Source of the DNA: a virus
Lineage: Duplodnaviria > Caudoviricetes
Reading direction: 5' to 3' (one strand)
IMG/VR virus record: IMGVR_UViG_3300033121_001410
Coordinates: 6,679-70,678 of that record
Length of the DNA: 64,000 bases
In this document: positions 3,430 to 38,931 of the stretch, piece after piece
Numbering within the stretch: the stretch's first letter is position 1
How the letters are laid out: the number at the start of each line of letters is the position of its first letter
Program-made: the position numbers and the translations under genes
The notes under the pieces: model-generated
Databases searched by the model: none
Told to the model about the DNA's origin: nothing
The model's input: only the letters and a program-made list of their open reading frames with translations

Positions 3430-3831
3430 ATGACTGTAAAAGATTATAAAAAGTTCAATGAGTTATCAAAAGTTTTTAATGAAACTTTTGGTGCGCAAAA
3501 TAAATTAGATAAATCTGTAAACACAGAAATGGTTCGTACTAAATTAATAAACGAAGAAAAAATGCAAGCTTTTTATATTTGTATTGTTAATTTACAAACA
3601 GAAAATATGTGGAAAGAATTAGAAAAAAAGAATGTAGACGATGCCTTGGAAGTAATGAGGCAATATTTTAAAAAATGCGTTGAAGAATATAAGAAAAACA
3701 CAGGAAAAAATATCAATTTTACAATAGATTCAAAAACAGTTCGATACGATGTTGAGTTTTTAAATTATAATATACTTAGGACAAATAGAAGCGCATATTT
3801 TAGAGTATATTGTGATGTCGATATTAAGTGA
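3430..3831 (+). CDS. Hypothetical protein
   Basis: 133 aa ORF, AAGG upstream of ATG, tight packing. Confidence 0.7.
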   Translation: MTVKDYKKFNELSKVFNETFGAQNKLDKSVNTEMVRTKLINEEKMQAFYICIVNLQTENMWKELEKKNVDDALEVMRQYFKKCVEEYKKNTGKNINFTIDSKTVRYDVEFLNYNILRTNRSAYFRVYCDVDIK

Positions 3832-4495
3832 AAAAACAGCAGATTTCATAGAAAATAATTTTTATTTTACAAATCCATCTAATTTCTCAAAATCAAGAAA
3901 GTTAAACAAAGAACAATTACAGATACTTGATGCAGTAAGCAATAATAAAAAAGTAATATTATTTAAAGAAAGGCAAATTGGAGCATCCACATTTGCCTTG
4001 TTTTATTGTGTATATCAAGCATTGAAGAACAACAACCATAAATGCATATATGTATCACATTCTCAGGTAATGGCAAGAACGTGGCTTAGTAGAATACAAA
4101 CATACGATATTGTAAAAAACAACACCTCTCATTCGTTTGCTGATGTTTTGACGTTTAAAAACGGATCAAGAATATATTTTACAAATATTGAATCAACAAT
4201 GATTCAAAATAATCCATGCAATTTGGTGATTCTTGATGAGTGTTCATACACAGGGGACATACAAACAGTAGTAGATGTTTTGCAGCAAAACGAACATACA
4301 AGTACAGAAATAATATTTTTTAATTCATATTTGAACAATGGATTAGCATCTACACTAGAAAATACGCATAATGAGATAATATTTACAAATATATTCAATT
4401 TTAAATGTACACATAAAATGTTGCCGGTATACATGTCATTAAAAGATGAATTGTTTAAAGAATCAAATTATTCATTTGATTATATTTGTAGGTAA
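3812..4495 (+). CDS. Terminase-like ATPase domain protein (no nuclease domain)
   Basis: KERQIGASTF (Walker A-like, cf. KSRQLGLST in neighbour), FKNGSRI, LVILDEC (Walker B); ends without RNase H-like domain. Start GTG 3812 or ATG 3815. Confidence 0.7.
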   Translation: MMSILSEKTADFIENNFYFTNPSNFSKSRKLNKEQLQILDAVSNNKKVILFKERQIGASTFALFYCVYQALKNNNHKCIYVSHSQVMARTWLSRIQTYDIVKNNTSHSFADVLTFKNGSRIYFTNIESTMIQNNPCNLVILDECSYTGDIQTVVDVLQQNEHTSTEIIFFNSYLNNGLASTLENTHNEIIFTNIFNFKCTHKMLPVYMSLKDELFKESNYSFDYICR

Positions 4496-4498
4496 TTT

Positions 4499-5092
4499 AT
4501 GGCTTCAAGTAAACAAAAAATTAAAAGAACACAAGAGCAAGCTCAAGAAATAATAAAATGCGGAAAAGATCCTGCTTATTTTATAAAGAAATATGTAAAA
4601 ATATCTCATCCTGTTAATGGTCTTGTCCCATTTGAAACATTCCCGTACCAAGATGATTGCTTAGAGATGTTTCAAAAACATCGCCTTGTTATAACAAACA
4701 AATCAAGACAGTTAGGTTTGTCTACAATATCAGCCGCATATTCTTTATGGTTGGCGTTGTTTCATAGAGAAAAAAACGTTGTTGTTATTGCTACCAAATT
4801 AGCAACAGCACAAGAGTTCATGACAAAAGTCAAAACTATGTTGGATTCATTGCCACCATGGCTAGTAATGCCTGATTTGGTTGGAGAATCAGTAAAGTAT
4901 TTACATTTTTCTAATGGATCAAGAATTAAGGCAATCCCAACTTCAAAAGATGCAGGCCGTGGATCCGCCGTGTCTGTTTTTATTATCGATGAATGTATTG
5001 CTTCGGACAGCATCATTACAATTAGAAATAAAAATACTGGCGAAATTAAAAATATCGAAATATCTTCTCTTTATGAAAAACAATATAAATAA
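4499..5092 (+). CDS. terL: Large terminase N-terminal fragment fused to split-intein N part
   Basis: CGKDPAYFIKKYVKI, PYQ, KSRQLGLST Walker A, FSNGSRI, AGRG, Walker B FIIDE, then 32-aa intein-like tail and stop. Confidence 0.95.
   Translation: MASSKQKIKRTQEQAQEIIKCGKDPAYFIKKYVKISHPVNGLVPFETFPYQDDCLEMFQKHRLVITNKSRQLGLSTISAAYSLWLALFHREKNVVVIATKLATAQEFMTKVKTMLDSLPPWLVMPDLVGESVKYLHFSNGSRIKAIPTSKDAGRGSAVSVFIIDECIASDSIITIRNKNTGEIKNIEISSLYEKQYK
4994..5089 (+). mobile_element. Split intein N-fragment (IntN, 32 aa)
   Basis: CIASDSIITIRNKNTGEIKNIEISSLYEKQYK: intein block A (C1, hydrophobic strands, IxxLY) directly after Walker B DE. Confidence 0.88.
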
Positions 5093-5115
5093 TTTTATTA
5101 TATATTTTATAGTTC

Positions 5116-5144
5116 TTGAAATGTTGTTTTAAGTATGTTATAAG
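5116..5144 (+). promoter_or_regulatory. Sigma70-like promoter upstream of the nuclease and downstream terL half
   Basis: TTGAAA-17 nt-TATAAG with TG extension. Confidence 0.55.
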
Positions 5145-5194
5145 AATGACATTCTATAAAGATAACACTTAAAAAATAAGGAATTATAATTATT

Positions 5195-7051
5195 ATGCCA
5201 AAACAACGAGAAATATTATCACAAAACATAACATTTGATTGTAAATTGTGTGATAAAGCTGCAATGAAATCAACAGGGTTTTCTAACCATGTAAATAGCA
5301 TGCATGTAAAAAAGGGCCATATTTCTTCATTAGAAGAATATTACAATGTTCATATTAACATTCTTTGGGGAAACAATAAAAACACATGCAATCATTGCGG
5401 GAAAGAAACAAAGTTTGTATCTATATTTGAAGGCTATCAAGAGTTTTGTTGTCATAAATGCTCCGTATCAACAGAAGAGCATAAATTATTGATGACTTCT
5501 AGAATAAAAGAGGTAATGTTAGAAAAATATGGAGTAGAACATAGTAGTCAATTACCAGGATTCTCGGATAAAATTAAAAAAACTAAACTTAAACGATATG
5601 GTGATGAAAACTATGTCAATCCTTTAAAAGCAAAAGAAACCGTATTAAAAAAATATGGTGAAGATTGTTATACTAAAACTGAAGAATATAAACAAAAATT
5701 AAAAAATACATGTTTAGAAAAATATGGCGTGGAACACTTTACGCAAAATGAAGAAGTGAAAAGAAAAATAAGAGAAACAAATCTTGAACGATATGGAGTA
5801 GAAATAGCAACTAAAAACGAAGACGTGAAAAGAAAAACAAGAGAAACGGTAATGATAAAATATGGTGTTAAGTCTTCTCTAAATCTTTATCATGCTCGTG
5901 AAAAAATGAAAAAATATAAAAATGATGCATTTACAGATAAACTTACAGGATTTATATTCCACAACGTATCTTTAGTTGACGCTGAAAAAAGAATATTTAA
6001 ATGTAAAATATGTAATGATGAGTTTGTATTCTATGACAATATAACCCTTGCTAAAAATCAACCATCAAGATTTCCTCATTGTAAAAAATGCAAACCAGTC
6101 GGAAAAAATCCAAGAAACTCATTAATACAGCAAGAAATAAATGGGTTTTTAATTGATTTATGTAAAATTGATCACTCAACATTTCATTTAGATTATAAAG
6201 GTTTTTTTGATGATTCAAATAAAGAATTAGATTTTTATTTTCATGATAAAAAAGTAGCAATTGAAATTAATGGAAATTATTATCATGCTGAGATTATTGG
6301 GAATAAAGATAAAAATTATCATATAAATAAAACTCTAATTTGTGAATATAAAGGAGTACAACTAATCCAAATCTTCTCGGATGAATGGAATGATAAAAAA
6401 GAAATAGTAAAAAATAGAATTAAAAATATTTTGGGATATAATGATGTCGCCAATAAAATAGGAGCAAGAAAATGTGTAGTTAAAAAAATAGATTCAAATA
6501 CTGCTAATGAGTTCATGAATAATAATCATCTTCAAGGTAGTGAAAAATCGAGTACCGTTCGATATGGAGCATTTTATAATAATGAATTAGTTGCATGTAT
6601 GACGTTTGGTTCTGAACGTATTTCCCTTGGAAGTAGAAGATACAATCAAGATGGATATTATGAGCTATTAAGATTTTGTACAAAAATAGGATATTCTATT
6701 TCTGGCGTGGCGGGAAAATTATTTTCCCAATTTGTTAAAGATTATAACCCAAAAAATATTATTTCTTACGCAGATAGAAGATGGTCTAGCTCAGCTATAA
6801 AAGATACAGTATATACAAAACTTGGATTCAAAGAAATAGGTCGTTCCGAACCAAATTATTATTATTTGCTTCGAGAAGATAATTATAGAAAGAGATTTAA
6901 TAGGTTTAAGTTTAGAAAATCTGAATTAAACAAATTATTATCTCAATATGATCCAAGTATTTCCGAGTGGGAAAATATGGTAAATAATGGACATGATCGT
7001 ATTTGGGATTGTGGGACGATAAAATATGAGTGGGCAAATAGAGAATTATAA
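5195..7051 (+). CDS. Free-standing putative homing endonuclease (Zn fingers, KYG repeats, Vsr-like nuclease, GNAT-like C-terminal domain)
   Basis: CxxC/HxxxH motifs; six (K/R)YG repeats; ELDFYF..KVAIEINGNYYH (Vsr/EDxHD-like); C-terminal ELLRFC...ISYADRRWS..VYTKLGF. Confidence 0.8.
   Translation: MPKQREILSQNITFDCKLCDKAAMKSTGFSNHVNSMHVKKGHISSLEEYYNVHINILWGNNKNTCNHCGKETKFVSIFEGYQEFCCHKCSVSTEEHKLLMTSRIKEVMLEKYGVEHSSQLPGFSDKIKKTKLKRYGDENYVNPLKAKETVLKKYGEDCYTKTEEYKQKLKNTCLEKYGVEHFTQNEEVKRKIRETNLERYGVEIATKNEDVKRKTRETVMIKYGVKSSLNLYHAREKMKKYKNDAFTDKLTGFIFHNVSLVDAEKRIFKCKICNDEFVFYDNITLAKNQPSRFPHCKKCKPVGKNPRNSLIQQEINGFLIDLCKIDHSTFHLDYKGFFDDSNKELDFYFHDKKVAIEINGNYYHAEIIGNKDKNYHINKTLICEYKGVQLIQIFSDEWNDKKEIVKNRIKNILGYNDVANKIGARKCVVKKIDSNTANEFMNNNHLQGSEKSSTVRYGAFYNNELVACMTFGSERISLGSRRYNQDGYYELLRFCTKIGYSISGVAGKLFSQFVKDYNPKNIISYADRRWSSSAIKDTVYTKLGFKEIGRSEPNYYYLLREDNYRKRFNRFKFRKSELNKLLSQYDPSISEWENMVNNGHDRIWDCGTIKYEWANREL
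5516..5910 (+). repeat. About six tandem 19-23 aa repeats in the endonuclease
   Basis: LEKYGVEH, LKRYGDEN, LKKYGEDC, LEKYGVEH, LERYGVEI, MIKYGVKS units mostly followed by K..ET/KT; end coordinate approximate. Confidence 0.75.
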
Positions 7052-7400
7052 AAATATATCAGAATGGGAAGTATTAACTCCAACCGGATTTAAGTCTTTT
7101 GACGGTATAAAAAAAGTTAAAAAAGAATACAGTATAAAACTAATAACAGAAACAGGCAAAGAAATAACGTGTTCTGGCGGACATCAATTATACATACAGC
7201 GAAACATTAAAGATCTTCAAGAAGAAATGTTTGCGTTTGCAGATACAATAGAGCCTTTAATAGACAAAATAAAAAACAAAGAAAACATATTCGAAACAAT
7301 AATTTCTATAGAAAAAACAGAAGAACAGTGTGAATTATATGATCTTGTTAATGTAGATGACGGATATGAATATTATGCAAATGATCTATTAAGTCATAAT
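7026..7400 (+). mobile_element. Split intein C-fragment (IntC, 125 aa)
   Basis: Own ATG; WEVLTPTGF, ITCSGGH (block B), LYDLVNV (block F), YANDLLSHN/C (block G, +1 Cys). Confidence 0.9.
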
Positions 7401-10400
7401 TGTGCGCACATTGAAAACTTTGGTGATTTGTGGACAGGTTTGCAACCAACATTATCTTGTGTCGTTGGTGATACGTTAATTTTAACAGATAATGGGTTTG
7501 AAAAAATTGAAGATTATCATAAAGGGTATAATATTGGAGATTATTTTGATTTAAAAATACCAATCTATGGAAAAAATGGAATGGAAGAAACGTCGCATGG
7601 TTACGTTTCTCCTGAAAGTGATACTTTAATAATAAAAACAAAACACGGCCATATGGTAGAGGTTACATTAAAACATCCTCTTTATATACAGAACACAGAG
7701 ATATCAGAAGGTGGCGAAATGATACAGGCCAAAAAGTTATCTCTTGGAGACAAATTGAGAATACAAATAGGCATGAAGTGTTATGGTAAAAAATCGTTAT
7801 CAGAAACCGATGCAAAAAATATTGGAATATATCATGGTAATAAATTACTTGTAGATAACAAATTAGATGTTCCAAATGATATACTTAGCGCAAATAAAAA
7901 AACGTTTGATTGTTTTATGAAAGGCTTATTGAAAACAGGTGCAAAAGAAAATAAAGAAACGATAAATGACAAATTGTTTACAATATCCACGGTAAGTGAA
8001 ATATTTGCTAGAAAATTAAACTTATTATTACATAACGATGGATATAAATCAAATATCATAGAACAGTATAATTTATATACAATTAATATCCCATTCAAAG
8101 AAACAAATAATGAAGAGTTTTATTGGGATGAAATTGTTTCAATAACGCCATCAAAAAACAAAACATATGATTTTACAGTTCCAAAAACTCATTCATTTTT
8201 ACAAAACGGAATACTTGGATCAAATACTGGAGGTTCTGCAATATTAATATCATCTCCACTCGGGGTTGGTAATACATTTCATAGTATTTGGTCAAAAGCC
8301 ACAGATAATAACTTTAATCCAGAAGACAGAAAAGGAAATCAAGAAGGATCAAACAAGTTTTATGCTATAGAGCTACCATGGACAGTTCATCCTGAAAGAG
8401 ATGAAGAATGGTATGAACAACAATGCGCTGAATTAATGAACGATCCCAGACGTATTGCCCAAGAACTTTTGTGTTTGACACCTGAAACATTAATAACAAC
8501 AAAAGCTGGTGTTAAATCAATTTTTGATATAAAAATTGGCGATGAAGTATTAACCCATAATGGAAGATATAGAAAAGTAACTAAAAAGTTTGAAAGAGAC
8601 TTTGATAATCAAAATGAAAAAATATATCAAATATCTACTCCTGGTAATCGTGGTACTAAAATAAATATAACCGAAAATCATCCTTTGTTTGGATATTTTT
8701 GGGAAAATAAAAAATATGATTTACGAGGCATTTCTAAAAAGAAATATCTTGAATATGCAGAAAACAATGACAAAAAAATAAACTCATATCCTTTATCTTT
8801 TATTTCTGGCAATACAAATCTGAGTACAAAACATTTTTCTAATTTAATTCATCCAAAGTTTAATTTAAATGAGTTTTTATACGAACAAAACAAACATATA
8901 GATTTATATGAAATGTGTAAAAACAAATTAAAAATCAGTTTAATTGATGAAGAAAATATTAAATATCATAGACAAAAAGGTAGTACGAAAAAACATATTG
9001 ATATAGATTATGATTTTGGAAGATTTCTTGGTTTGTTCTTGTCAGAAGGCTGCATAGACAAAAGAAGAGTTTCGTTTGCATTTCATCATGATGAAATGGA
9101 TACCCTTGGTTTATTTGTTAAAAATTATTTTAACAAATATAATATTCTTTATCATGATAATAAAAGGTCTTATTCTAAATGCTATACAATTACAACATCT
9201 AATAAGTTCGTTATAGAACTTATAAAACAATATATAAATGGAAAATATAGTTTAGATAAAACAATAAATATGGATTTAATTGCAAGAACAAATATAGATG
9301 TAATAAAAGGTTTGTTGGCGGGTATTTTTGAAGGTGATGGCAGTCATCCTGTAAATGGAAACTATACAAATAAAATGAATCTTGTTTGTGTAAATGATAA
9401 TTTATTATCTCAAGTAAAAACACTGTTAACTTCCTTTGGCATATATGCAAGAATAGGATATTGGAATAACAAACGTTCATATTTATCTTTTGATGGAATC
9501 AATTCAATATCAGTCAAACATCGAAACATTAAAGATATTTTAGAAAATTATTCATCTAAGGATTTTGAAAAAAACACATCAAGAACATATTTTTCTGATC
9601 GTTTTGGTTTTTTTGGAAAAATACAATATAAAGAAATAAATTACACAGGAAAAGTGTATAATATTGAAGTCGAAGAAGATAATAGTTATGTTGTTGATAA
9701 CTGTTTAACAGTTCACAATTGCGGTTTCAATGCTTCTGGAAATAATTTCATTGAAAACGCTACGCTTGATTATTTGAGAAACAATATAAAAACTCCGATA
9801 GCGAAATATGGTCCAAATAATGATATGTACATTTGGGAATATGCGAACTCAGGGGATAGATACATAATTTCTGCTGACGTAGCAAGAGGAGATGCAGATG
9901 ATTATTCTGGCATGTATGTTATAAATGCCAATACAAATGTTTGCGTTGCTGAATATAAAGGAAAAATGCCGCCAGATAGATATGCAGAGTTTTTGGTAGA
10001 TGTTGCAAAAAAATACAACAATGGATTTATTGTAAATGAAATAAACAATGTAGGAATAGCAACCTCTTATGCCTTAAAATCAACAAAATATCCAAATATT
10101 TATTATGAGAAAATGTTTAACGGATCTTTGATATGCAACAATCCACCAGAAGTTGTTGGTGATTTGGTTCCTGGATTTAACACAAATGCAAAATCTAGAA
10201 ATGAAATATTGGTGAAGTTTGAAGCATCAATAAGAAATAAGGAAATACAGATATTTTCTGAAAGACTTATTAAGGAACTAGATACCTTTATTTGGGATGG
10301 CAAAAAGGCAAAAGCAATGAAAGGATACAATGACGATCTTATCATGGCTCTTGCAATAGGTGTTAACTTTATTGAATGGGGCAAAAAAAATAATTATGAA

Positions 10401-10595
10401 GGAAGCGCAGTTGCCATGGCTATGTTACAAGCAATGTCAAAAGATTCTAGAAGTTCTGTTCAATTTGGATGGGGCAATTCAGGACAAGATTTGCCTATGC
10501 GTGGCGGTTGGGGCAATGCCAATCAAAATCCAAGCCCGGCACAACAAAATAGATTTGGCAACTATGATTGGTTTATTAAACTAATAGAAAAATAA
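7026..10595 (+). CDS. terL: Large terminase C-terminal fragment precursor: IntC + two cis inteins + exteins
   Basis: Exteins CAHIENFGDLWTGLQPTLS, TGGSAILISSPLG...IAQELL, CGFNASG...ISADVARG..DDYS..E..NxG...NDDLIMALAIG (gp17-like nuclease). Predicted spliced length 165+19+82+291=557 aa. Confidence 0.95.
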   Translation: MSGQIENYKNISEWEVLTPTGFKSFDGIKKVKKEYSIKLITETGKEITCSGGHQLYIQRNIKDLQEEMFAFADTIEPLIDKIKNKENIFETIISIEKTEEQCELYDLVNVDDGYEYYANDLLSHNCAHIENFGDLWTGLQPTLSCVVGDTLILTDNGFEKIEDYHKGYNIGDYFDLKIPIYGKNGMEETSHGYVSPESDTLIIKTKHGHMVEVTLKHPLYIQNTEISEGGEMIQAKKLSLGDKLRIQIGMKCYGKKSLSETDAKNIGIYHGNKLLVDNKLDVPNDILSANKKTFDCFMKGLLKTGAKENKETINDKLFTISTVSEIFARKLNLLLHNDGYKSNIIEQYNLYTINIPFKETNNEEFYWDEIVSITPSKNKTYDFTVPKTHSFLQNGILGSNTGGSAILISSPLGVGNTFHSIWSKATDNNFNPEDRKGNQEGSNKFYAIELPWTVHPERDEEWYEQQCAELMNDPRRIAQELLCLTPETLITTKAGVKSIFDIKIGDEVLTHNGRYRKVTKKFERDFDNQNEKIYQISTPGNRGTKINITENHPLFGYFWENKKYDLRGISKKKYLEYAENNDKKINSYPLSFISGNTNLSTKHFSNLIHPKFNLNEFLYEQNKHIDLYEMCKNKLKISLIDEENIKYHRQKGSTKKHIDIDYDFGRFLGLFLSEGCIDKRRVSFAFHHDEMDTLGLFVKNYFNKYNILYHDNKRSYSKCYTITTSNKFVIELIKQYINGKYSLDKTINMDLIARTNIDVIKGLLAGIFEGDGSHPVNGNYTNKMNLVCVNDNLLSQVKTLLTSFGIYARIGYWNNKRSYLSFDGINSISVKHRNIKDILENYSSKDFEKNTSRTYFSDRFGFFGKIQYKEINYTGKVYNIEVEEDNSYVVDNCLTVHNCGFNASGNNFIENATLDYLRNNIKTPIAKYGPNNDMYIWEYANSGDRYIISADVARGDADDYSGMYVINANTNVCVAEYKGKMPPDRYAEFLVDVAKKYNNGFIVNEINNVGIATSYALKSTKYPNIYYEKMFNGSLICNNPPEVVGDLVPGFNTNAKSRNEILVKFEASIRNKEIQIFSERLIKELDTFIWDGKKAKAMKGYNDDLIMALAIGVNFIEWGKKNNYEGSAVAMAMLQAMSKDSRSSVQFGWGNSGQDLPMRGGWGNANQNPSPAQQNRFGNYDWFIKLIEK
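7458..8225 (+). mobile_element. Cis intein 2 of terminase (256 aa, degenerate LAGLIDADG)
   Basis: CVVGDTLILTDNG...VTLKHPL...TYDFTVPKTHSFLQNGILGSN/T. Confidence 0.88.
8472..9719 (+). mobile_element. Cis intein 3 of terminase (416 aa, LAGLIDADG endonuclease)
   Basis: CLTPETLITTKAG...ITENHP...FGRFLGLFLSEG...LLAGIFEGDG...VYNIEVEEDNSYVV...TVHN/C. Confidence 0.93.
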
Positions 10596-10616
10596 GATAC
10601 AAACAGTTTTTCCGTA

Positions 10617-10625
10617 TGCTATACT
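10617..10625 (+). promoter_or_regulatory. Extended -10 promoter, likely leaderless
   Basis: TG-C-TATACT ending 6 nt before ATG 10632; no SD. Confidence 0.5.
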
Positions 10626-10631
10626 TGAGAC

Positions 10632-11468
10632 ATGGAAAAAGAACCAGTTATATTGTTTAGAAAAGGCATTGCAGAAACATCGGAGCATGATGTTGCTAGC
10701 AAATATTTTAATGTTTATGATAATCGTACAAAAATACCAGACAACTCAATTGTTTTGGGACGATATTCAGTATTGCCTTTTTATAAAGAACTTGAAGAAG
10801 ATTTAGAATATAAAAATTGCACTTTGATTAATTCATATAGACAACACAGATATATCGCAGATATATCAAATTGGTATTTGGATTTTGAGGATATTACACC
10901 AAAAACATGGTTTGAATTAAATCATGTTCCAAGTAATGCTGGGCCTTTTGTTCTTAAAGGCGAAACTAATTCAAAAAAGTTTAATTGGAAGACACATATG
11001 TTTGCCGAAAACAAAACAGAAGCAAGTAATGTATACGGCAGACTTTTACAAGATTCTTTAATTGGAAACCAAAGAATATGTATAAGGCAATATGTTCCCC
11101 TTAGAGCCTTCACAAAAGACTTCTCAGGGCTTCCGATAACAGAAGAGTACAGGTTCTTCATATTGAATGGCAAAGTCGTTTCTGGGGCGTTCTACTGGGC
11201 TTCTCATGAAGAACTACTTCAAGAGCACAAGGACATAAACCCTGACAATGTTCCACGAGAGTTTCTTAATGATATAATTGATAGAATTGGGAAAAACTCT
11301 AATTTCTTTGTGGTAGATATAGCAAGAACAGAAAAGCCATATTCTACAATGGAAAAACAACAAGAATGGATTGTGGTGGAGTTTAATGATGCACAATCAA
11401 GTGGACTATCCATGTGTGATCCTAATATTTTATATAGAAATATGAAGATGGTAATTAATGAAAAATGA
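10632..11468 (+). CDS. ATP-grasp ligase (R2K/DUF4343-like)
   Basis: FVLKG, IRQYVPL, EEYRFFILNG, FFVVDIA, WIVVEFND. Confidence 0.75.
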   Translation: MEKEPVILFRKGIAETSEHDVASKYFNVYDNRTKIPDNSIVLGRYSVLPFYKELEEDLEYKNCTLINSYRQHRYIADISNWYLDFEDITPKTWFELNHVPSNAGPFVLKGETNSKKFNWKTHMFAENKTEASNVYGRLLQDSLIGNQRICIRQYVPLRAFTKDFSGLPITEEYRFFILNGKVVSGAFYWASHEELLQEHKDINPDNVPREFLNDIIDRIGKNSNFFVVDIARTEKPYSTMEKQQEWIVVEFNDAQSSGLSMCDPNILYRNMKMVINEK

Positions 11469-37233: not shown

Positions 37234-38931
37234 GTGTCCATGAGTTTAAACAAGAAGAAAATAATAATTCAATTAGATTTTAATTTAAATCAAATAGCAA
37301 CATATAATAGCATTGATGAAGCCGCAAGAAAACTTGGCACATCAAGAACTATTATTTCTAAATGCGTTTCTGGAAAATCTTCACAGTCAAAAGGATATTA
37401 TTTTGTATCTCAAGACATGCTTGAACGTTTTATCCGTGAAAAATCTAATTCCTCTCAATATACGTGCAAGATTTGTAATTTACAGTTAAACAACAATCGT
37501 TCTTTGGCTACTCATATACAAATTACACATGGAATTGAAACGCGGGATTATACAATAAAATATTTATATAATTCCATTGTTCCAGTGTGTAAGCATGAAA
37601 ATTGTAATAATGAACCAAGATACGTAGGGTTTTCATTTCATGAATATTGTAAAGAACATGCAGAAGTTGCAATGAGTATAGGTGGAAAAATTGGAGCATC
37701 TATTACAAACAAAGATGGCGCTTGGAATAAAGGATTAACAAAAGAAACAGATGAAAGAATAAAAAAACAAGCAGAAAACATGCTTGGAGAAAAAAATCAT
37801 TTCTTTGGTAAAAAACACAATAGCGAAACAAAACAAAATCTTAAAGATATAAACACTTTAACAGAACAAGAGTTTATTAAAAGAATAGAAACAAGAAAAG
37901 ATGAGTTTGATTTAAAATCATTATATTTTGAATACATTAATCAAAATAAAAAACTTGTTTTTATATGTAAAAAATGCAACAAAGAAAACCTGTTAAGTTT
38001 ATTTAATTTTTATTCTAGAAAGTCACTATGTGCGAATTGTTTTCCTTCTGGGAAATCAAAAGATGAACTTGAATTATATAATTTTATTAAAGATTTTTTA
38101 ATAACTAATAAAAACTATTCTTGTGATGACATCATTAATGGAGATAGACAAACTATAAAACCAAAAGAATTGGATATTTTAATAAAATCTAAAAACTTTG
38201 CAATAGAATATAATGGCCTTTATTGGCATGGCGAACACGAACATTTAGGAAGAGTAGAAAAAAGAACAATACAGGAAAAGAGTGATCTTTGTAAATCACT
38301 TGGAATACAACTGTTTCATATTTTCTCAGATGAATGGATAAACAACAAAGATTTGATTAAGTCTATGATATTGTCAAAGTTAGGTTATAGTCAAAATAAA
38401 CTATATGCGAGAAAATTAAAAATAAAAGAATTAACAAATGCAGAAGCGAAGATGTTTTTTGATTCTTCTCATTTGTCTGGTCATGTTAGAAGTGAAAAAA
38501 TATTTGCTCTTGTTGATGGCAACAATGAGGTTTTGTGTGCGCTTTCACTTAGAAAACCACATCATAAAAAATATGATTCATATGTTGAAATTGCAAGGTT
38601 TGCAACCAAACCAAATCATCAAATAGTTGGCGGATTTTCAAAATTACTAAATCATTCTATTGTTTGGATAAAGCAAAACAACTATAAAAAAATACTTTCT
38701 TATTGTGATCTTCGACATGGTACAGGAAGAGTTTATGAAGCTTCTGGATTTGTTTACAAGGGCGATTCTGATATATCTTATTGGTACACGGACGGCAAAC
38801 AAAGATACAATAGATTTAAGTTTAGGGCAGATAGTAAGAACGGTAAAACAGAAGAGGATGTTGCGAAAGAGAATAACGTGTGGAAGATTTATGGTTGTAA
38901 AAACAAGATATACGAATATGTTATAAAATAA
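37234..38931 (+). CDS. Putative homing endonuclease (NUMOD1-like HTH, Zn fingers, Vsr-like nuclease, GNAT-like domain); related to 5195-7051
   Basis: YNSIDEAARKLG; CKIC..HIQITH; ELDILI..AIEYNGLYWH; EIARFAT...ILSYCDLRHG..VYEASGF. Confidence 0.8.
   Translation: MSMSLNKKKIIIQLDFNLNQIATYNSIDEAARKLGTSRTIISKCVSGKSSQSKGYYFVSQDMLERFIREKSNSSQYTCKICNLQLNNNRSLATHIQITHGIETRDYTIKYLYNSIVPVCKHENCNNEPRYVGFSFHEYCKEHAEVAMSIGGKIGASITNKDGAWNKGLTKETDERIKKQAENMLGEKNHFFGKKHNSETKQNLKDINTLTEQEFIKRIETRKDEFDLKSLYFEYINQNKKLVFICKKCNKENLLSLFNFYSRKSLCANCFPSGKSKDELELYNFIKDFLITNKNYSCDDIINGDRQTIKPKELDILIKSKNFAIEYNGLYWHGEHEHLGRVEKRTIQEKSDLCKSLGIQLFHIFSDEWINNKDLIKSMILSKLGYSQNKLYARKLKIKELTNAEAKMFFDSSHLSGHVRSEKIFALVDGNNEVLCALSLRKPHHKKYDSYVEIARFATKPNHQIVGGFSKLLNHSIVWIKQNNYKKILSYCDLRHGTGRVYEASGFVYKGDSDISYWYTDGKQRYNRFKFRADSKNGKTEEDVAKENNVWKIYGCKNKIYEYVIK

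Follow-up and report, generated by a model that had tools for sequence, protein, structure and literature searches.

A fractured phage terminase gene with a putative atypically split intein at its Walker-B site and a Hef-type nuclease gene between the halves

How might a phage obtain an intact large terminase (TerL) from a gene that stops in the middle of its ATPase active site? The question is raised by a stretch of DNA of 64,000 nucleotides (hereafter the window; positions 6,679 to 70,678 of the IMG/VR virus record IMGVR_UViG_3300033121_001410), which comes from an uncultured giant T4-like phage and in which the terL locus consists of three consecutive open reading frames (ORFs), all on the plus strand, at 4499–5092, 5195–7051 and 7026–10595. 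We read this locus as a fractured terL gene, in which a class-1 mini-intein at the Walker-B motif has been split by the gene of a Hef-type EDxHD nuclease and whose halves would be rejoined by protein trans-splicing, and we put the probability of this reading at roughly 85%.

The first ORF encodes a protein of 197 amino acids (terL-N) that matches Pfam Terminase_6N and phrog_5989 (E=8e-49, with the profile extending through the tail). Its N-extein of 165 amino acids (4499–4993) covers a T4-type TerL ATPase from the N-terminus via Walker A to the Walker-B sequence ...VSVFIIDE, after which come a tail of 32 amino acids (CIASDSIITIRNKNTGEIKNIEISSLYEKQYK; CIASD...EKQYK, 4994–5089) and a TAA stop (5090–5092). 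This tail (IntN; 4994–5092 with the stop) contains intein block A only, with Cys1. Beyond an intergenic leader (5093–5194) lies a free-standing homing endonuclease gene of 618 codons (5195–7051), and the ATG of the third ORF sits 26 nucleotides inside its 3′ end. The first 125 amino acids of that third ORF (IntC, 7026–7400) hold block B (CSGGH), block F and block G, end in ...LLSHN and lead directly into CAHIENF, the beginning of the first C-extein piece (CAHIENFGDLWTGLQPTLS, 19 amino acids, 7401–7457), whose Cys+1 is the predicted nucleophile of trans-splicing. A sequence-only reading of the window had described the terL N-half ending in DE/CIASD with its IntN and stop, the nuclease gene between the halves and the ATG-started IntC ending in SHN/C, and all three are present at the positions it gave.

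Across the two pieces the catalytic positions of a class-1 intein are complete, with Cys1 (CIASD), the block-B His (CSGGH), the penultimate His, the terminal Asn and Cys+1 (CAHIE). Among solved structures in the PDB, IntC matched the consensus CatC intein (6dsl_B, E=1.3e-12) and gp41-1 (6qaz, E=1.2e-5), and the profile of the intein family also matched the VidaL and DnaX inteins; IntN alone, too short as a query, gave no match in the PDB. A search with IntC plus 19 extein residues against 1.84 billion representative proteins returned 702 matches at E≤1e-3. Placed end to end, IntN and IntC are colinear with 12 contiguous inteins (127–167 amino acids) at the same DE/C site, and the break maps to a loop after residue ~30 whose length varies from 0 to 40 amino acids among one-piece relatives. 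These one-piece Walker-B mini-inteins read ...IDE/CV.GDT...SHN/CA[FH]I..., and the IntN family shares the consensus C[VI].GDT.I.[VI]RNK.TGE...I.DLY across ~60 clusters. Because the two pieces align over their full length with contiguous same-site inteins and IntC matches 6dsl_B, the resemblance is not one of chance. By this alignment, the intein is broken between blocks A and B and not at the canonical B/F position, that is, atypically split; the conserved blocks, the colinear alignment and the homology to CatC thus support the earlier proposal of a fractured terL with an atypically split class-1 intein.

The placement of the element at Walker B was likewise upheld. In profile alignments, the exteins of Walker-B-type halves align with T4 gp17 from residue 256, which puts the intein exactly between the catalytic Glu and the next Cys (256/257). 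In the numbering of the established T4 literature, these residues are the catalytic Glu256 and Cys257 of gp17. At the same place in Escherichia phage HY03 (Tequatrovirus) the element interrupts IYIDE / CAFIPNF, and uninterrupted relatives of the window TerL read LLIVDEAAFV... or ...DECAFI... at the insertion point.

From this layout we infer splicing, the target of the nuclease and the mode of gene expression as follows, with steps modelled on the biochemically characterised AceL, GOS and Cat TerL inteins. The nuclease gene would have broken a mini-intein in the variable loop past its first ~30 residues, so that two polypeptides are made, TerL(1–165)–IntN (with 32 intein residues) and IntC–TerL-C (with 125). 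The Hint fold would be completed when the short IntN docks onto the partly folded IntC; Cys1 would then form a thioester with Glu165, the N-extein would pass to Cys+1 of CAHIE, and cyclisation of Asn125 followed by an S-to-N shift would give FIIDE-CAHIENF and restore the ATPase active site, the predicted ligated junction being FIIDE-CAHIE. Two further inteins, numbered 2 and 3, would splice out in cis, and removal of all inteins is predicted to leave a mature TerL of 557 amino acids. The nuclease would be expressed separately and presumably cuts element-free terL alleles of co-infecting phages, and repair of the cut terL would copy both the nuclease gene and the intein halves on either side of it.

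The arrangement recurs in close and distant relatives. The identical terL-N protein was found on seven contigs and the identical nuclease on four. A relative in IMG/VR with ~70% identity (L003) agrees with the window in gene order, with an ATPase paralogue, a terL-N with an IntN of 33 amino acids, a nuclease of 654 amino acids and IntC–terL-C; its identity to the window is 76% for the N-extein, 47% for IntN, 59% for the nuclease, 69% for IntC and 68% for the C-exteins. Window and L003 both show what defines a fractured gene, namely two ORFs carrying intein halves with a homing-endonuclease ORF between them, all on one strand. In four cases, nuclease homologues share the length of their longest contig with terL halves and so probably lie on the same contigs. 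The split intein and the nuclease are present in the window and in L003; a further relative, P0127, has the IntC half, and probably a nuclease homologue on the same contig.

More widely, ~60 clusters (at 90% identity) of terL-N halves of ~200 amino acids end in DE/C followed by 30–58 amino acids, and a homologue of IntC occurs in 85 records of cultured phages, nearly half of which (41) are Campylobacter phages; the other cultured carriers are T4-like phages of Escherichia, Salmonella, Shigella, Serratia, Yersinia, Aeromonas, Vibrio and Pseudomonas. In these carriers, the GenBank annotation shows no more than two terminase genes and an 'endonuclease' separating them. T4-like coliphages have a different endonuclease, of 199 amino acids (phrog_15427), at the same break, which fits repeated invasion of the loop. 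In Campylobacter phage CP30A (NC_018861), the terL halves lie 25 kilobases apart on opposite strands (L001 5854–6570; L021 2998–4326) and carry an IntN of 31 and an IntC of ~100 amino acids of the same Walker-B family; with the halves so placed, only joining at the protein level would be possible there. The Campylobacter Eucampyvirinae have a fully unlinked trans arrangement, as in cyanobacterial dnaE. Another fractured gene with a related atypically split intein was seen in IMGVR_UViG_3300029268_000006 (L018 2198–5053), where a P-loop NTPase gene ends in ...GETGVGK/C plus ~29 amino acids and is followed by a gene for a Vsr-like nuclease of 301 amino acids and by an IntC ending in SHN/S; the lineage with short IntNs thus extends beyond terminases.

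By sequence, then, the element belongs to a known and common arrangement. Fractured genes have been found mainly in phages, with a gp17-like terminase locus among the 27 loci described (PMC2677866), and a paper of 2012 on a Campylobacter phage reported an interrupted terL, read as an intein plus an intron (PMC3322345). The characterised natural atypical split inteins in reviews are only AceL-TerL, GOS-TerL, VidaL and PolB16 (PMC11766414), and our literature search found no paper that names or characterises a Walker-B split TerL intein. The suggestion that this split intein may be new did not hold at the level of sequence, given the number of terL-N clusters and cultured-phage records, the Tequatrovirus HY03 included; the site is common in nature, and we found no bench characterisation of it.

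We then turned to the nuclease gene. The first 250 residues of its product consist of a zinc finger and DUF7487 'KYGV' helical repeats and are followed by a Cys4 ribbon at residues 255–300. The nuclease domain occupies residues ~310–413 (6122–6433) and contains D346, E357, H364 and D396; in 46 aligned homologues the first three are invariant and D396 is nearly so (≥90%). Their spacing of 11/7/32 compares with 11/7/28 for D51/F62/H69/D97 of Vsr, and the position of E357 matches the invariant Glu noted in Vsr-like homing enzymes by Dassa et al. (PMC2677866). The window nuclease (P0002) belongs to a very large family, with 2285 proteins at E≤1e-5, which PHROGs and GenBank label as homing endonuclease or Hef-like, and the profile of this family matched I-Bth0305I (3r3p) at E=0.0011. 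In an AlphaFold model of residues 292–420 (predicted local distance difference test score, pLDDT, 84), the top match in the PDB was again 3r3p (E=7e-4, template-modelling score 0.75), with the Vsr structure 1cw0 also among the matches, lower down. Since Hef-type phage enzymes belong to the EDxHD family (PMC3239194), the label 'Vsr-like' given to the enzyme from sequence alone is right, and the catalytic residues, their spacing and the 3r3p match bear it out.

Two further observations concern this nuclease. Its residues ~420–618 (6452–7048) unexpectedly adopt, in a full-length model with a pLDDT of 88.6, the fold of phage Mu Mom and GNAT acyltransferases (match to 8bv8, E=5.7e-7); ~24 residues of this domain, the ADRRW motif among them, are invariant in the 46 homologues, 19 of which match the Pfam Mom family PF25680. 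A second, diverged Hef-type nuclease paralogue lies at ~37924–38841 on the plus strand, in an open frame of 571 amino acids, with 35% identity over residues 254–579.

The nuclease had also been credited with its own sigma70-like promoter, and here the sequence-only reading found no support. The candidate TTGAAA-17-TATAAG does stand at 5116–5144, and a ribosome-binding site AAGGA lies at 5179–5183, ahead of the nuclease gene; promoter-like sites in 3700–7500 numbered 28, at the chance level of 26.0 ± 5.3 expected. A T4-late-like TATAAATA at 5084–5091 overlaps the terL-N stop; the window holds 18 copies of this motif against 10 expected, a modest enrichment that is not significant. The RNA fold of the nuclease leader was not significant either (z = −1.7).

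Several other explanations could account for a terL gene in two pieces, and the one that deserves most attention is that the pieces remain two, the intein halves serving as a non-covalent dimerisation module without ligation, as in the NrdA of Aeromonas phage Aeh1, which is split by a homing endonuclease. T4-like phages do have split genes whose products function as two polypeptides (cited in PMC2677866 and PMC10448857). However, Cys1, the block-B His, the His-Asn pair and Cys+1 are all kept across dozens of diverged clusters, which would be unnecessary for mere docking, and with ~157 extra residues directly after its Walker-B Glu the ATPase would probably be crippled; we therefore consider docking without ligation unlikely. 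Less probable still is removal of the interruption at the RNA level. The homologous Campylobacter phage locus has been read in part as an intron (PMC3322345), and terL introns exist in other phages, such as ICP1 (PMC10448857), but an Rfam scan of 3500–11000 detected no intron family even at E≤1, with only a chance match to U6 and no recognisable RNA core of a group I or group II intron. In addition, the interval is taken up by the nuclease ORF, which extends into the IntC ORF and leaves no space for a 3′ intron core, and the flanking 32 and 125 amino acids are complementary parts of one Hint domain, so that RNA removal would leave an intein and not an exon junction. The position of the CP30A halves on opposite strands also argues against it.

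It is equally improbable that the locus is an artefact or in decay, with the stop at 5090 being an assembly or sequencing error, or terL a pseudogene replaced by another copy. The record is a metagenome-derived fragment, and a divergent TerL-ATPase paralogue lies just upstream (3812–4495); against this, terL-N is identical on the seven contigs, the layout of stop, nuclease gene and ATG recurs in L003 and in independently sequenced cultured phages, and the upstream paralogue has only 23% identity and no nuclease domain. Assembly error as the cause of the stop, which the sequence-only reading had named as a way in which it could fail, is made improbable by these contigs and by the gene order of L003. 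Three points nevertheless weigh against trans-splicing of a fractured terL. IntN is the least conserved segment between the window and L003 (47% against 69% for IntC); the contig is a fragment, estimated by CheckV to be 19% complete, and an intact terL may lie elsewhere in the genome; and neither the scan of 3700–7500 nor the fold of the leader revealed a significant promoter or RNA structure through which the nuclease could be expressed on its own. Taking both sides together, we still prefer a fractured terL whose product would be joined by trans-splicing.

The relation of this site to that of the known TerL split inteins was examined by sorting the best 150 relatives of IntC by their C-exteins. 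Among these 150, one Hint lineage occupies at least four TerL sites: site (a), Walker B, DE/CA[FH]I, with 65 split and 27 one-piece inteins; site (b), .../C[EDSK]FLGS, with 19 split and 11 one-piece inteins; site (c), four residues upstream of the Walker-B DE; and site (d), immediately past the P-loop. The exteins of site (b) map to T4 gp17 ~352, at the junction of ATPase and nuclease, and in the window this site holds cis intein 3 (HN/CGFNASGNNF; compare P0204, HN/CSFLGSGNNF). In CatC, which is a consensus of AceL and GOS, the extein begins with Cys-Glu, and this intein scored 123.6 bits against the profile of site (b) and 95 bits against that of the Walker-B set of site (a); its two top single matches are split inteins of site (b), with 57% and 52% identity. 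The Glu at position +2 of the C-extein mentioned in a review (PMC11766414) fits CEF and not CAH. Judged through CatC, the insertion points of the AceL/GOS/Cat allele and of the window element thus differ (gp17 ~352 and 256/257), in support of the earlier statement that AceL-TerL and GOS-TerL occupy a site other than Walker B, filled here by cis intein 3. Our own initial idea that AceL and GOS sit at Walker B was rejected on account of the separate CEFLGS site and the better fit of CatC there. Scans of viral contigs for a split locus at the CEFLGS site yielded nothing but TerLs without inteins or an unrelated gene.

Whether the window pair would work alongside the known TerL pairs without exchanging fragments is a separate matter. 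Inteins of sites (a) and (b) are close kin, interleaved in similarity at 45–57% identity. A maximum-likelihood tree built from 154 Hint domains (105 columns, 12 starred forks) groups the inteins by site and mixes split with cis forms; its resolution is too low for events to be ordered. Because the site families interleave and a review reports that fragments of GOS and AceL can be exchanged for each other (PMC11766414), cross-reaction of the window pair with Cat, AceL or GOS is plausible, and the odds that the pair is orthogonal to the known TerL pairs, as had been suggested, appear to lie well under even. The wider proposal, of a large natural Walker-B family that is unlike AceL/GOS/Cat in site and exteins (DE / CA[FH]) and in which the window pair is an active and non-cross-reacting trans-splicer, is doubtful as a whole; if true, it would add another pair with a short IntN to the tools of protein chemistry.

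Downstream of the first C-extein piece, the third ORF continues with cis intein 2 (256 amino acids, CVVGD...GILGSN / TGG, 7458–8225), the second C-extein piece (82 amino acids, 8226–8471), cis intein 3 (416 amino acids with a LAGLIDADG endonuclease domain, QELL/C...VHN/CGFNASGNNF, 8472–9719) and the third C-extein piece, which comprises the TerL nuclease domain (291 amino acids plus stop, 9720–10595), all on the plus strand. The cis inteins vary among close relatives, the window having both, L003 (compared over 6001–8349) only intein 2 and P0127 neither; P0127 runs uninterrupted to ...PTIS-TGGSAIL where the window has cis intein 2. Directly upstream of terL-N, the TerL-ATPase paralogue at 3812–4495 (227 amino acids, 23% identity to terL-N) has Walker A, LVILDEC and a C-motif-like stretch and lacks a nuclease domain; L003 shares this extra gene (L003 2722–3426), which may stand where the small terminase gene would be expected.

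The locus illustrates how selfish elements pile into the catalytic core of a packaging ATPase, with one trans-splicing and two cis-splicing events predicted per TerL, and how a single intein lineage can occupy several TerL sites, both in one piece and split. Its value is practical, not conceptual, as nothing in it departs from known mechanism. Few natural split inteins have an IntN within reach of peptide synthesis (AceL-TerL, GOS-TerL, VidaL and PolB16). The Walker-B family may offer dozens of diverged natural pairs for protein engineering; some of them belong to mesophilic coliphages that can be cultured, such as HY03, and would be simpler to begin with than the metagenomic pair of the window.

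Finally, we compared the window with the known systems closest to it. The fractured gp17 genes of cultured phages (Escherichia phage HY03, Pseudomonas phage PspYZU05, Salmonella phage SG1 and Campylobacter phages CP30A, CP81, NCTC12673 and IBB_35) share the DE/C Walker-B site, a homologous IntC (31–41% identity) and an IntN of 31–43 amino acids; they differ in that the coliphages carry the endonuclease of 199 amino acids and the Campylobacter halves are unlinked. The 'fractured genes' of PMC2677866 likewise have split-intein halves on two same-strand ORFs, separated by a free-standing gene for a Vsr-like or GIY-YIG endonuclease, and the text of that paper names the terminase locus, later GOS-TerL, but not the Walker-B site; the window differs by two cis inteins in the same gene and by a nuclease with an extra C-terminal Mom/GNAT-fold domain. 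With I-Bth0305I and Hef (EDxHD; PDB 3r3p), the window nuclease has the nuclease fold and the catalytic motif in common, whereas it is much larger (618 amino acids), has N-terminal zinc fingers and DUF7487 repeats instead of NUMODs and bears the extra conserved domain of ~200 amino acids with the Mom/GNAT fold C-terminal to the nuclease. The atypical AceL, GOS and Cat TerL inteins (PDB 6dsl), for which trans-splicing is experimentally established (review PMC11766414), resemble the window pair in their T4-type TerL host protein, the split after block A and Cys+1, with an IntN of 25–37 and an IntC of 104–115 amino acids against 32 and 125 in the window, and besides the CatC match of IntC at E=1.3e-12, the CatC fragment tested is 54% identical to the window IntC over a stretch of 39 residues. 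They differ in site, with a C-extein of C[EDS]FLGS at gp17 ~352, whereas the window intein lies between the local exteins DE and CAH.

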